64,000 nucleotides of DNA, taken from Escherichia coli. GTDB taxonomy: Bacteria; Pseudomonadota; Gammaproteobacteria; Enterobacterales; Enterobacteriaceae. The notes beneath the pieces were generated by a model that was not told the origin of the DNA, made no database searches, and saw only the letters and a program-made list of their open reading frames with translations. Location of the stretch: the NCBI RefSeq assembly GCF_003790525.1, contig NZ_CP033635.1; one strand, written 5' to 3'. The position numbers and the translations under genes were made by a program. Positions 24,365 to 36,351 of this stretch are shown here, in pieces; within the stretch, counting starts at the first letter, position 1, and each line of letters opens with the position of its first letter.

Positions 24365-25030
24365 TTAACTCGCCTGCAAAGCGTTGATTTCGGATTTATC
24401 TGCCAGTCTTTTCAACAGCATATTGAGTAATACGCCATACATTGGCAGGAAGAAAACGATACTGATTAACACTTTGAAACAGTAATCGACCAGCGCGATT
24501 TCCATCCAGTGTTCAGCCATAAAGGCATCTGGGCTGCGCCAGAAGGCAATGAAGAAGAAGGCCAGCGTGTCGCTGACGTTACCAAACAGGGTGGAAGCCG
24601 TCGGTGCCAGCCACCAGCGACGACTCTGACGCAGGCGGTTAAAAACGTGCACGTCGAGGATTTGCCCCAGCGCGTAGGCCATGAAACTGGCGGTGGCGAT
24701 ACGGGCGACAAACAGGTTGAAGTGGGCGAGCGCGCCGAATCCCTGCCAGGAACCCATATAGAACAGCGACGAGATGACGTAGGAGATCAGTAACGCCGGG
24801 ATCATCACCGCAAAGATGATACGACGGGCCAGCGGTGCGCCAAAAATACGCACAGTCAGGTCGGTAGCAAGGAAAATAAACGGAAAGCTAAACGCGCCCC
24901 AGGTGGTATGGAAACCAAAAATGGATACGGGAAGCTGAACCAGATAGTTACTGGAGGTGATCACCAGAAGATGAAATAACGATAACCAGAACAACGCCTT
25001 ATAGCGTTGAGTTTGCGAGAAAACGTTCAT
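24365..25030 (-). CDS. yhhQ: Queuosine-precursor transporter YhhQ
   Basis: 221 aa polytopic membrane protein. Confidence 0.85.
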   Translation of the reverse strand: MNVFSQTQRYKALFWLSLFHLLVITSSNYLVQLPVSIFGFHTTWGAFSFPFIFLATDLTVRIFGAPLARRIIFAVMIPALLISYVISSLFYMGSWQGFGALAHFNLFVARIATASFMAYALGQILDVHVFNRLRQSRRWWLAPTASTLFGNVSDTLAFFFIAFWRSPDAFMAEHWMEIALVDYCFKVLISIVFFLPMYGVLLNMLLKRLADKSEINALQAS

Positions 25031-25250
25031 ATTGTACCTTTTTGATTAACCATTGGGGTGAGGGAACCCAATACGTACGACACGTCTGTTACCTTAACAT
25101 AATAACGTGCTGACCCTTTTTTCGAGCCGCCGCATGATACTGCTTTACGTTAACAATGCAATGGTTAATTTTCACGCAATCGTTAACCTGGTTTGCTTAC
25201 GGACTCACAGGGCGTAAACTAGCGCCGTTTTTTTATGTGATGAGAAGAAA

Positions 25251-25496
25251 ATGACCGATCTCTTTTCCAGCCCTGACCACACACTCGACGCACTTGGCCT
25301 GCGCTGCCCGGAACCAGTAATGATGGTGCGCAAAACAGTGCGCAATATGCAGCCAGGTGAAACGTTGCTGATTATTGCTGACGATCCGGCGACGACACGC
25401 GATATTCCTGGGTTTTGTACCTTTATGGAACACGAACTGGTTGCGAAAGAGACGGATGGACTGCCTTATCGTTATTTGATTCGCAAATCGGGGTAA
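25251..25496 (+). CDS. tusA: Sulfur-carrier protein TusA
   Basis: 81 aa; CPxP motif (LRCPEPV). Confidence 0.93.
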
Positions 25497-25600
25497 GGTG
25501 GATCAGGCTAGCGGACCGATCGCGCTCAATTTTGCGGCTTGCAACCGGTTTGTAGGACGGATAAAAAGTTCAAGCTGCATCTGGCGATACGGTGCGCAAT

Positions 25601-25687
25601 GCCTGATGCGACGCTGTCGCGTCTTATCATGCCTACGAGTTCGATGCCCTGTGTAGGCCAGATAAGGCGTTTACGCCGCATCCGGCA
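25601..25687. repeat. REP/BIME element (two inverted REP units)
   Basis: GCCTGATGCGACGCTG...CGTCTTATCATGCCTAC and TGTAGGCCAGATAAGGCGTTTACGCCGCATCCGGCA read directly. Confidence 0.8.
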
Positions 25688-25710
25688 CGCAAACGTAATG
25701 GAATGCACAA

Positions 25711-26019
25711 ATGGATTATTTAATTCCAGTTTGTCTGGCATTGCTGGGATTGCTCGCGATCTTCACCCCCAATTGGCTGATCCCTGTTTTTATCGTCGTG
25801 GGGGGATGGCTGGGGGTACTTGCCTGGGGTTGGCTCTGGCTAATGATTTTTTTACCTTTACTTAACGGTGTCGGGCTTGCTTATGCCCTGTGGTTGATGT
25901 TCAAAAGGCCATCCATAGCATCCCGCCTGGTTGCTGCATGCTGTGTTATCTCCGTCATTCTGATGTTAGCGCTTTATTATGCTTTCCTGACTATGCCGCC
26001 GTTCCCGCCTCAGCACTAA
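25711..26019 (+). CDS. Hypothetical small hydrophobic protein (about 3 TM helices, Trp-rich) in the tusA-zntA gap
   Basis: 102-aa ORF with a weak RBS between two convergent genes, next to REP repeats; could be spurious. Confidence 0.3.
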   Translation: MDYLIPVCLALLGLLAIFTPNWLIPVFIVVGGWLGVLAWGWLWLMIFLPLLNGVGLAYALWLMFKRPSIASRLVAACCVISVILMLALYYAFLTMPPFPPQH

Positions 26020-26051
26020 GCCTGATAGCCAGAGGCTATCAGGCAACACTT

Positions 26052-28250
26052 TTACTTCCTGCGCAACAATCTTAACGCATTCGCCGTCACCAGCACCGTC
26101 GCACCCGTATCTGCCAGCACCGCCAGCCATAGCCCGGTCATTCCTAACAGTGTGGTGACGAGGAAAACGCCTTTCAGCCCCAGCGCAATGGTGATGTTCT
26201 GGCGGATATTGGCGTGAGTGGCGCGTGCCAGTTCAATCATTTGCACCAGACCGCGCAGGTGGTTATGGGTTAATGCTGCATCGGCGGTTTCCAGCGCCAC
26301 GTCTGTGCCACTGCCCATTGCAATCCCGATGGCGGCAGCTTTCATCGCTGGCGCGTCGTTAATACCATCACCGACCATCGCCAGCGGCGCATGTTGATTC
26401 AGCTCGGTCACCGCTTTGACTTTATCTTCCGGCAACAGGCCCGCTTTAAATTCCAGCCCCAACTCCCCGGCAATTGCCGCCGCGGCGCGTGGATTATCGC
26501 CGGTGAGGATCACTCCTTTAACCCCCAGCGCGTTCAGTTCACTGATAGCAGTTGCAGCATCGGCGCGCAGGGTATCCTGCAACGCAATGACACCCAGCAC
26601 GTCATCATTACGTACTACCAGCACTACCGTTTGCCCGGCGCTTTCCAGTTCATTAATCAAACCAGCAAATGCATCAGCAGGATGTTTTCCGGCAGCGCAT
26701 ATCAACACGCGCTCACCGTTAACCTGCGCTTCAATGCCAGACCCGACCAGCGCCCGCTGTGATTGGGCGGTGGGAATGGCGAGTTCAGCAACCTGTGCTT
26801 CGCGCACAATGGCTTGTGCCAGTGGATGCGTCGCGCCTTGCTCGACCGCCGCCGCCAGTGTCAGCAGTTCAGATTCACTAATACCCGTTGCCGGATGAAT
26901 CGCGGTAACGCGCGGTTTACCGACGGTCAGCGTACCGGTTTTATCAAACGCCACCTGGGTAACACGACCCAGCTGCTCCAGCGCCGCGCCGCCTTTAATC
27001 AACGCCCCACGACGCGCTGCTGCCGCCAGCCCGGAGGTAATCGCCGCGGGCGTGGAGATAACTAACGCACACGGGCAACCAATCAGCAGCAGCGTCAGCC
27101 CTTTATAAATCCACTCTTGCCAGCTGGCGGCAAACAGCAGCGGCGGCACCAGCGTCACCAGCAGAGCGACGGCCATAATCGCTGGCGTGTAGATACGGCT
27201 GAAACGGTCGATAAACCGCTCAATGGGGGCGCGACGCTCTTCGGCTTCTTCGATCAGTTTCAGAATCCGGTCAATGGCGCTGGCACCCGGTTCTGACAGC
27301 ACTTCCAGCGTTACCAGACGGTCTACGCTGGTGGCACCAGCAGGGACTTTATCGCCCGTTGCGCGCTCCACCGGAATGGATTCTCCGGTCAGGGCGCTTT
27401 CATCAAAACTGGCAAACGGTGAGAGCAGTTTACCGTCGGCAGGCAAACGCCCACCTGCCGCAACTTCAATCACATCGCCAGGGCGCAGGCTGTTAATCGC
27501 CACCTCTTCACGCTCACCGTTACGCAGACGCGTGGCGGTTTCCGGTTTCAGCGCCATTAACGCGCTAACGCCCTGACGCGCGCGGCTGGCGGCCCAGCCT
27601 TCCAGTCGTTCACCAATCAAAAACAGCAGCAACACCATCGCAGCTTCAGCCGTTGCGCCAATAAACAGCGCACCAATAGCGGCTACGCTCATTAAGGTTT
27701 CAATGGCGAAGTAGCTGCCAGATTTGATCAGCCGTAATGCCTGACGAGCAATCGGGTACAGCCCAACCAGCGTGGTCGCGATAAACGCCAGTTGACCAAA
27801 CGGATGATTGAACTGCTCCAGACCCCAGCTGATTGCCATCATCACGATTAGCGTAATCAGCGGCAGATTCTCTTTCAGGCGTGATGCTTGTGGTTCGTCG
27901 GTGGTCTGTTCATCGCGCAGGGAATAGCCCGCTTTTTGCACCGCAGATTCAACCTGGGCACGGATGTCATTGTCGGCATCGACTACCAATTTTTCGGTGG
28001 CGAACAACACCTGCACCTGATTCACGCCTGCAAGCTGGCGCACGGCATTTTCCACTTTGCGCGCACAGGCGGCGCAGTCCATGCCGCTGACTTTCCAGCT
28101 ATAGCGGGTGCCGGAGACGCTTTCAGAGAGCGTTGGCGTGCTGGAACATGCGCCATCGCAGCAACAGTCGTTGGTGTTCTGTACCGTAGTTAGCGGTTTG
28201 AACGCAGCAAATTGAGGGGCTTTCTTGCCGTGATTGTCAGGAGTCGACAT
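26052..28250 (-). CDS. zntA: Zn/Cd/Pb-exporting P1B-type ATPase ZntA
   Basis: 732 aa; metal-binding GMDCAAC, CPC transmembrane motif, DKTGTLT phosphorylation site. Confidence 0.95.
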   Translation of the reverse strand: MSTPDNHGKKAPQFAAFKPLTTVQNTNDCCCDGACSSTPTLSESVSGTRYSWKVSGMDCAACARKVENAVRQLAGVNQVQVLFATEKLVVDADNDIRAQVESAVQKAGYSLRDEQTTDEPQASRLKENLPLITLIVMMAISWGLEQFNHPFGQLAFIATTLVGLYPIARQALRLIKSGSYFAIETLMSVAAIGALFIGATAEAAMVLLLFLIGERLEGWAASRARQGVSALMALKPETATRLRNGEREEVAINSLRPGDVIEVAAGGRLPADGKLLSPFASFDESALTGESIPVERATGDKVPAGATSVDRLVTLEVLSEPGASAIDRILKLIEEAEERRAPIERFIDRFSRIYTPAIMAVALLVTLVPPLLFAASWQEWIYKGLTLLLIGCPCALVISTPAAITSGLAAAARRGALIKGGAALEQLGRVTQVAFDKTGTLTVGKPRVTAIHPATGISESELLTLAAAVEQGATHPLAQAIVREAQVAELAIPTAQSQRALVGSGIEAQVNGERVLICAAGKHPADAFAGLINELESAGQTVVLVVRNDDVLGVIALQDTLRADAATAISELNALGVKGVILTGDNPRAAAAIAGELGLEFKAGLLPEDKVKAVTELNQHAPLAMVGDGINDAPAMKAAAIGIAMGSGTDVALETADAALTHNHLRGLVQMIELARATHANIRQNITIALGLKGVFLVTTLLGMTGLWLAVLADTGATVLVTANALRLLRRK

Positions 28251-36250: not shown

Positions 36251-36351
36251 TGCCGGATACGGCGTAAACGCCTTATCCGGCCTACAAGATTCAAAGAAAT
36301 CAGTAAATTGCAGCACACATTGTAGGCCTGATAAGCGTAGCGCATCAGGCA
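36251..36351. repeat. REP/BIME element downstream of livJ
   Basis: TGCCGGATACGGCGTAAACGCCTTATCCGGCCTACA and TGTAGGCCTGATAAGCGTAGCGCATCAGGCA units. Confidence 0.8.

Follow-up and report, generated by a model that had tools for sequence, protein, structure and literature searches.

The open reading frame (ORF) at positions 25711 to 26019, on the plus strand between the convergent genes tusA and zntA, is probably a genuine, dispensable gene that encodes a small polytopic protein of the inner membrane. Judging from sequence comparison, it would belong to an unnamed orphan family whose position downstream of tusA is the only consistent feature. Positions are those of the window, by which we mean the whole 64,000-nucleotide stretch of Escherichia coli contig NZ_CP033635.1 that was analysed. 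The earlier note had proposed a possible small membrane-protein gene here, and this proposal is supported by the conservation of the frame, by the selection acting on it and by distant homologues located after tusA. The same note suspected that annotation might have missed the gene, which turned out to be wrong: PGAP calls the gene, as a hypothetical protein, in all E. coli records inspected, and UniRef holds an entry with identical sequence, A0A1M2T030 (A0A1M2T030_ECOLX). Both RefSeq and UniRef already list the gene publicly: WP_000385055.1 and A0A1M2T030_ECOLX denote the same gene, and the entry carries no information on family, function or context. Two things appear not to have been described previously, namely that tusA-linked relatives form a family beyond Escherichia and that E. 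coli is in the course of losing the gene; literature searches returned nothing on the three WP accessions, nor on TusA with a small membrane protein.

Over positions 25400-26150 the window is 100% identical to the chromosome of E. coli strain 2016C-3878, and in this identical record PGAP gives the gene order dcrB, yhhQ, tusA, hypothetical protein WP_000385055.1, zntA. The three genes that define the locus are:

Positions 25251 to 25496, plus strand: tusA, encoding the sulfurtransferase TusA of 81 aa, assigned from the ORF and the PGAP annotation of the identical record, with a Pfam PF01206 match of 81.9 bits.
Positions 25711 to 26019, plus strand: the small membrane-protein gene, with an ATG start and 102 aa plus stop, RefSeq WP_000385055.1, 'hypothetical protein'.
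Positions 26052 to 28250, minus strand: zntA, encoding a Zn/Cd/Pb P-type ATPase, the convergent neighbour, assigned from the ORF and the PGAP annotation of the identical record.

The gap from stop to stop, 25497-26051, is exactly 555 bp long, as had been stated, and contains a G-rich repeat remnant directly 3' of tusA, three REPs, the 102-codon ORF and an 11-bp hairpin.

We scanned for conservation of the ORF with one genome per GTDB species and found it in five Escherichia species-level genomes, namely E. albertii, E. whittamii, two Escherichia sp. and a record labelled E. coli; cryptic Escherichia clades are among them. A set of nine sequences, which includes these five together with three divergent E. 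coli alleles (92-99% nucleotide identity), keeps 102 codons throughout, with neither an indel nor a stop within the frame. Among the checks that the earlier note had named, conservation of the reading frame in relatives and the balance of synonymous and nonsynonymous substitutions both speak for a gene. Start and stop are identical in all nine sequences, and pN/pS is 0.22-0.46 in the more divergent pairs (one-sided Fisher p from 0.03 to 5e-6). The minimum numbers of substitutions at the three codon positions are 24/17/44, an enrichment at the third position with a chi-square p of 0.001. About 4.2% of random substitutions in the ORF would make a stop; neutral change would thus have produced about 3.6 stops among the at least 85 substitutions, and none is observed (P about 0.026). 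In addition, two full-length variants, P0016 and P0021, carry in-frame changes of +9 and -9 nt. This substitution pattern demonstrates moderate purifying selection on the frame across Escherichia. The Nei-Gojobori (NG86) dN/dS of the ORF is mostly 0.3-0.5, compared with 0-0.08 for tusA in the same genome pairs, so the constraint on the ORF is clearly weaker than that on tusA.

These data also bear on whether there is a gene at all, or only a chance open frame that has been conserved for some non-coding reason or merely by shared ancestry. Such a reading could draw on the weak SD and the lack of a detected promoter, both described below, on the lack of any family or fold match, and on the dS of the ORF, which is rather low compared with tusA and could hint at nucleotide-level constraint. 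It is hard to reconcile, however, with the third-position enrichment and the pN/pS values, with the in-frame indels, with the lack of an Rfam match inside the ORF, and with protein homologues that share 37-40% identity at the same position in other genera despite divergence of the DNA. Stops interrupt the other frames on both strands in all except one alternative plus-strand frame, and the reverse-strand frames are full of them. The comparative data already largely refute the chance-frame reading, which we regard as exceedingly improbable.

Returning to a protein-coding gene, we examined the composition and predicted structure of its product. The protein has a GRAVY of 1.45, with 22 Leu and 6 Trp, which confirms the earlier description of a very hydrophobic, Trp-rich 102-aa product. 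Only five residues are D, K, R or H (D2, K65, R66, R72 and H102); Glu is missing altogether, which leaves D2 as the sole acidic residue, and the C-terminus, MPPFPPQH, is uncharged. The AlphaFold2 model is all-helical, with a mean pLDDT of 79 and helices at residues 4-18, 23-65 and 69-94. About three TM helices had been predicted from the sequence, and the model does contain three helices; the middle one, however, is 43 residues long and could cross the membrane twice, which makes four TM segments likelier than three. These would probably lie at about 4-18, 22-43, 46-64 and 72-94. By the positive-inside rule, the likely topology is N-out/C-out, with the basic loop K65-R66...R72 facing the cytoplasm.

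Comparison of the product with known families gave no identity. When the AlphaFold2 model was compared with the PDB by Foldseek, no match reached E <= 0.001 and only generic helical hairpins came up, and scans of the ORF and its relatives with Pfam, NCBIfam, PHROGs and PADLOC yielded nothing above threshold. The similarity to the Mnh/Pha cation-proton antiporter subunit F (NF009243) scores 17.1 bits (E = 0.007), where the cut-off is 95, and looks like a compositional effect of hydrophobic helices; we rejected this assignment. Holins are found in a phage or prophage context and have a charged C-terminal tail. We rejected a phage holin in view of the core chromosomal context, the uncharged C-terminus and a single PHROG match, at E = 0.18, to a family of unknown function. 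Type I toxins such as Hok, Ldr, Ibs and TisB are single-TM peptides shorter than about 60 aa, usually multicopy and accompanied by an antisense or overlapping sRNA; we rejected this reading too, as the product considered here has 102 aa and 3-4 helices, its gene is single-copy, and no Rfam sRNA lies in or opposite the ORF. A role in anti-phage defence was set aside as neither the ORF, nor its relatives, nor the DUF2004-type neighbour described below has a PADLOC match, and mobile-element cargo was set aside for a gene that occurs once per genome, invariably at this locus, and never on a plasmid.

Not all database forms of the protein are full-length. Frameshifted or truncated ones are P0023, P0026-P0028, P0030, P0034 and P0038, and several of their breakpoints fall at two homopolymer runs:

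Positions 25800 to 25805, plus strand: a G6 homopolymer in the ORF, the frameshift point of the truncated database variant P0038.
Positions 25847 to 25853, plus strand: a T7 homopolymer in the ORF, where the frame changes in variants P0034 (61 aa, truncated) and P0027/P0030.

P0027 and P0030 are 106 aa long and have an alternative-frame N-terminus; P0032, P0033, P0035 and P0036 are also 61 aa, as read from the database lengths alone. The frameshifted forms could be either true pseudogenes or homopolymer sequencing errors.

We next turn to relatives outside Escherichia. A word-indexed protein search returned Escherichia proteins only. A profile (HMM) search of 1.84 billion cluster representatives found, beyond Escherichia, only P0039 (83 aa, hmmsearch E = 1.2e-5) and P0042 (84 aa, hmmsearch E = 5.5e-4), and further protein searches with these two as queries added one sequence, P0043. 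Annotated records of P0042 come from Huaxiibacter chinensis and Lelliottia amnigena (WP_442359237.1, ANG94608.1), and P0039 from a contig of another enterobacterial lineage. The window protein and P0039 are 37% identical over 83 residues (BLASTP E = 6e-16), P0039 and P0042 are 40% identical (BLASTP E = 1e-16), and hhalign aligns the Escherichia profile to P0042 with 95.6% probability. The proteins of Huaxiibacter/Lelliottia and of the metagenome contig L013, 83-84 aa long, are homologous to Escherichia residues 21-102 and share with the Escherichia protein P25, G32-W33, G55, M63, R72, S81 and F98. They lack the first TM helix, corresponding to Escherichia residues 2-20. Residues 2-17 (DYLIPVCLALLGLLAI) resemble residues 21-36 (NWLIPVFIVVGGWLGV), and both segments match the N-terminus of P0039 equally well, with scores of 43 and 44; a shuffle test for internal duplication was marginal, as 115-148 of 2000 shuffles reached the score (p about 0.06-0.07). 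The first TM segment is probably an Escherichia-specific addition and may have arisen by tandem duplication of codons 2-20.

What these genes have in common is their place in the genome. All Escherichia loci inspected, the window included, have the gene downstream of tusA, and so do L013, L014-L017 and L018. Outside Escherichia, the relatives start 35-36 nt after the tusA stop, on the same strand, in every such locus, and the dcrB-yhhQ-tusA-ORF context is present wherever their contigs reach far enough. The 83-84 aa relatives thus share with the Escherichia gene its position after tusA, its strand and a homologous AAGGAA ribosome-binding motif; they differ in having no REPs in the short spacer and a stronger SD. 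The linkage to tusA rests on three independent lineages, and the family is found in very few lineages. As the alignments and gene orders indicate, it is a small orphan family defined by tusA linkage.

The other neighbour offers a different reading, in which the protein would be an accessory subunit or regulator of ZntA, like KdpF, MgtS/MgtR, sarcolipin or the FXYD proteins. Small membrane proteins of these kinds act on other P-type ATPases, the product here is likewise small, hydrophobic and of membrane type, and in the window the ORF adjoins zntA, with 32 nt from stop to stop. The two genes are convergent, however, and not co-transcribed. A three-gene TRAP transporter operon (dctPQM) intervenes between them in Huaxiibacter/Lelliottia (L014, L017), the opposite-strand gene of 162-165 aa that follows the ORF in E. 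albertii, GF4-3 and L013 intervenes in E. albertii, and most E. coli carry zntA without the small gene. The invariant link is to tusA, across the same 35-36 nt spacer outside Escherichia. We therefore rejected a KdpF-like or MgtS-like small subunit of a P-type ATPase, for a gene that is convergent with zntA and not consistently linked to it, and we judge a ZntA partner to be very unlikely.

For the tusA-linked gene that we favour, we next consider how it might be expressed in E. coli. Between tusA and the ORF, and again behind the ORF, the following elements are found:

Positions 25552 to 25586, plus strand: a degenerate REP of decayed Y-type, recognised by alignment with the intact REP GTAGGCCGGATAAGGCGTTCAAGCTGCATCTGGCG of the 260-bp-gap E. 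coli allele.
Positions 25601 to 25636, plus strand: a canonical Z-type REP, with 1 mismatch to GCCTGATGCGACGCTNNCGCGTCTTATCAGGCCTAC; 0 of 100 shuffles match.
Positions 25653 to 25687, plus strand: a canonical Y-type REP, whose core at 25657-25686 has 1 mismatch to the consensus; 0 of 100 shuffles match.
Positions 25699 to 25706, plus strand: the ribosome-binding motif TGGAATGC, whose GGAA core ends 7 nt before the ATG, from the upstream regions of 12 loci.
Positions 26020 to 26044, no strand assigned: an inverted repeat with perfect 11-bp arms, GCCTGATAGCC-AGA-GGCTATCAGGC, lying between the stop codons of the ORF and zntA.

A BIME had been placed at 25601-25687, and two canonical REPs do lie there; with the third, degenerate REP at 25552-25586 the BIME is somewhat larger than proposed. 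The repeats are clustered, extragenic imperfect palindromes of about 35 bp that match the E. coli consensus. The degenerate REP lies inside an Rfam naRNA4 (RF02564) match at 25555-25633 (E = 8.6e-7), and a second naRNA4 match, at 25656-25690, overlaps the Y-type REP; all naRNA4 matches here are below the gathering score. Within the ORF or the hairpin we found no Rfam RNA family; the REP-derived similarity to naRNA4 was the only one in the scan. The REP context invoked in the earlier note is thus present, but the meaningful linkage of the ORF is with tusA, and with neither the REPs nor zntA.

The ribosome-binding motif TGGAATGC corresponds to AAGGAATGC/AAGGAAGGC in distant relatives, and the region reads AAAGGAATGC or AAAGGAAGGC in other genera. 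Most Escherichia sequences have (A/T)TGGAAT(G/A)C at this place, and the Escherichia lineage L006 retains AAAGGAA. The predicted SD:anti-SD duplex of the ORF is -3.3 kcal/mol, compared with a median of -5.4 kcal/mol for the long ORFs in the window and -2.5 kcal/mol for random 20-mers, in agreement with the weak RBS noted before. The corresponding duplexes in L013, L014 and L018 are -5.6 to -7.8 kcal/mol, and that of tusA itself is only -2.7 kcal/mol.

A scan of positions 25000-26300 for consensus promoters found no sigma-70-like site; it missed the tusA promoter too, so the scan is insensitive. No terminator-like site was found between tusA and the ORF, either in the window or in other genera. 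Since the spacers hold no terminator-like site and no consensus promoter was detected, co-transcription with tusA is the simplest reading, and the small gene would be the distal cistron of the tusA transcript. The tusA-to-ORF spacer in the window is 214 nt long and folds strongly as RNA (z = -3.5), and this structured spacer, with the inserted REP/BIME, probably lowers expression in Escherichia. The change of AAGGAA to ATGGAA weakens the SD and would probably act in the same direction. Given the folded spacer and the drop of the SD duplex to the value above, expression is probably low. Sequence comparison across these loci indicates that REP insertion and a weakened SD separate the ORF from tusA in Escherichia, where the gene is being lost.

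At the other end of the ORF, the hairpin at 26020-26044 has an RNA folding energy of -20.6 kcal/mol, with z = -3.9 on the plus strand and z = -2.8 on the minus strand. It is kept in L005, L006 and L009, alleles in which the ORF abuts zntA directly, with the loop inverted in L009. We suggest that it ends or stabilises both convergent transcripts, probably as a shared 3'-end or terminator.

The distribution within E. coli shows how far the loss has gone. The ORF is present in 317 of 5426 complete E. coli genomes, in one copy each and never on a plasmid; about 94% lack it, and their tusA-zntA gaps are 260 bp or 101 bp long. In the allele with the 260-bp gap the REPs survive together with a remnant of the hairpin arm, CTGATAGCC, and the K-12-type 101-bp gap keeps the G-rich repeat only. 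Because ORF-less alleles retain a relic of the downstream hairpin, the absence of the ORF arose by deletion. A further gene belongs to this history: on the opposite strand, 3' of the ORF, a gene of 162-165 aa that PGAP annotates as DUF2004 is found in E. albertii, E. coli GF4-3 and contig L013, the two compared copies being 58% identical, and in E. albertii (L007) it lies between the ORF and zntA. Read together, the alleles indicate a locus trimmed stepwise, first of the DUF2004-type gene, then of the small ORF and then of the REPs.

Such a history invites the reading that the ORF is a relic, a gene of the tusA operon that worked in an enterobacterial ancestor but, severed from tusA by the REP insertion and left with a weakened SD, is now effectively silent in E. 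coli and whose frame is still open for lack of time. Its loss from the great majority of complete E. coli genomes points this way, as do the stepwise deletion of the DUF2004 gene, the ORF and the REPs in different lineages, the SD that is weak relative to other genera, the frameshifted variants at homopolymers and a dN/dS several-fold above that of tusA. The selection data pull in the opposite direction. pN/pS is significantly below 1 within Escherichia, where all lineages already have at least one upstream REP and already carry the weak ATGGAA/TTGGAA motif. Furthermore, the nine divergent alleles hold no stop or frameshift where several stops would be expected under neutrality, the indels of full-length alleles stay in frame, and an SD just as weak precedes tusA, whose status as a gene is beyond doubt. 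We consider a silent relic unlikely, if far from negligible, and a real, dispensable gene under moderate constraint remains our preferred reading.

As to what such a protein might do, the tusA linkage in three lineages is the sole functional lead. TusA is a sulfur-trafficking branch point that feeds tRNA 2-thiolation and molybdenum cofactor synthesis, and a membrane partner at that point would therefore be of some interest. Our best guess, from the linkage alone, would be a membrane protein that assists the TusA sulfur relay, and it is a long shot. Somewhat more doubtful still is the specific notion of a functional partner in Enterobacteriaceae that would, for example, anchor TusA to the inner membrane or link it to the uptake or export of a sulfur species. 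If a partner of TusA were indeed encoded here, the gene would have been lost or replaced in most lineages, and the E. coli strains that carry it would differ from strains without it, such as K-12, in tRNA thiolation or in molybdenum-cofactor sulfur flux.

If expressed, the product would be one more uncharacterised small membrane protein in the E. coli accessory genome. Neither K-12 nor O157:H7 carries the gene, so that nearly all functional genomics is blind to it. The locus offers a tidy example of stepwise gene loss and REP insertion into a former two-gene operon. We regard it as real but ordinary: the REP-rich gap holds an already annotated gene for a small membrane protein, restricted to certain lineages and dispensable. 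Nothing here would surprise a specialist, and the loss and the tusA-linked family are of modest interest.

Two known systems invite direct comparison. The first is the SMR family of transporters (EmrE, SugE/Gdx), which the product resembles in its size of about 100 aa and in the prediction of four short TM helices packed as a bundle. SMR transporters have a conserved membrane-embedded Glu in TM1. The ORF product, in contrast, has no membrane-embedded acidic residue and no sequence similarity to the family; with no Pfam match at E <= 1 and no Glu, an SMR transporter (EmrE/SugE, PF00893) was rejected. The second comparison is with the BIME/REP clusters of E. coli, to which the window corresponds in having three REPs, at 25552-25687, between the stop codons of two genes, the classic location of REPs. 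Unlike a usual BIME, however, this cluster sits within what other genera have as a tight two-gene unit, so that it probably splits or attenuates an operon rather than merely trailing its last gene.

Across Enterobacteriaceae, the tusA-zntA interval is a variable insertion site, since the Huaxiibacter/Lelliottia loci have a TRAP transporter operon (dctP, dctQ and dctM; locus L014, 4423-7221) between zntA and the small membrane-protein ORF, which is 102 aa long in the window. Another gene, of 162-165 aa and labelled DUF2004 by PGAP, lies 3' of the small ORF and in the opposite orientation at three other loci:

L007 3369-3866, minus strand, E. albertii copy
L012 981-1475, minus strand, E. coli GF4-3 copy
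L013 688-1176, minus strand, copy on an enterobacterial metagenome contig

In E. albertii this gene sits between the small ORF and zntA. Two compared copies share 58% identity, and the GF4-3 copy gave no match in the Pfam or PADLOC scan. The window carries no such DUF2004-labelled gene, suggesting that an earlier step of deletion at its tusA-zntA locus removed it.

The small ORF (25711-26019) itself yielded dS values of 0.11-0.24 between the window and four genomes of other Escherichia species, about half of the 0.22-0.50 obtained for tusA (25251-25496) in the same genome pairs, with both genes being short. Because of that shortness, noise may account for the low small-ORF dS relative to tusA; other possible causes are recombination of the segment or some additional nucleotide-level constraint. 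O145 and its related E. coli have a small-ORF allele that shares only 92% identity with the one in the window, yet 98% with that of the cryptic-clade Escherichia sp. E1V33. This pattern of sequence identity suggests that the segment passed between species, or that an old polymorphism persisted.

Two homopolymer runs lie inside the small ORF:

25800-25805, run of six G
25847-25853, run of seven T

Several database variants of the protein that are truncated or switch frame (P0027, P0030, P0034 and P0038) have frameshifts coinciding with these two runs. Such variants could have arisen by genuine, repeated slippage with pseudogenisation, or from sequencing errors at the homopolymers.

Outside the tusA-zntA gap, the window holds a further canonical Y-type REP element (36252-36281, minus strand) with one mismatch to the consensus.

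Immediately 3' of the tusA stop, K-12-type strains (L003, 598-680) carry a G-rich repeat of the hairpin/G-quadruplex type, CCCTCTCCCCAGAGGGGCGAGGGGACCGATCGC. Compared with this sequence, the window at 25497-25523 keeps only the last ~11 bases of the repeat, GGACCGATCGC, the rest being deleted, and the final three tusA codons also differ, reading KSG in the window and KGG in the K-12-type sequence. E. albertii retains a partial copy of the repeat. The K-12-type repeat corresponds to a published listing, HPG1 no. 40, located between zntA and tusA (PMC5100583).
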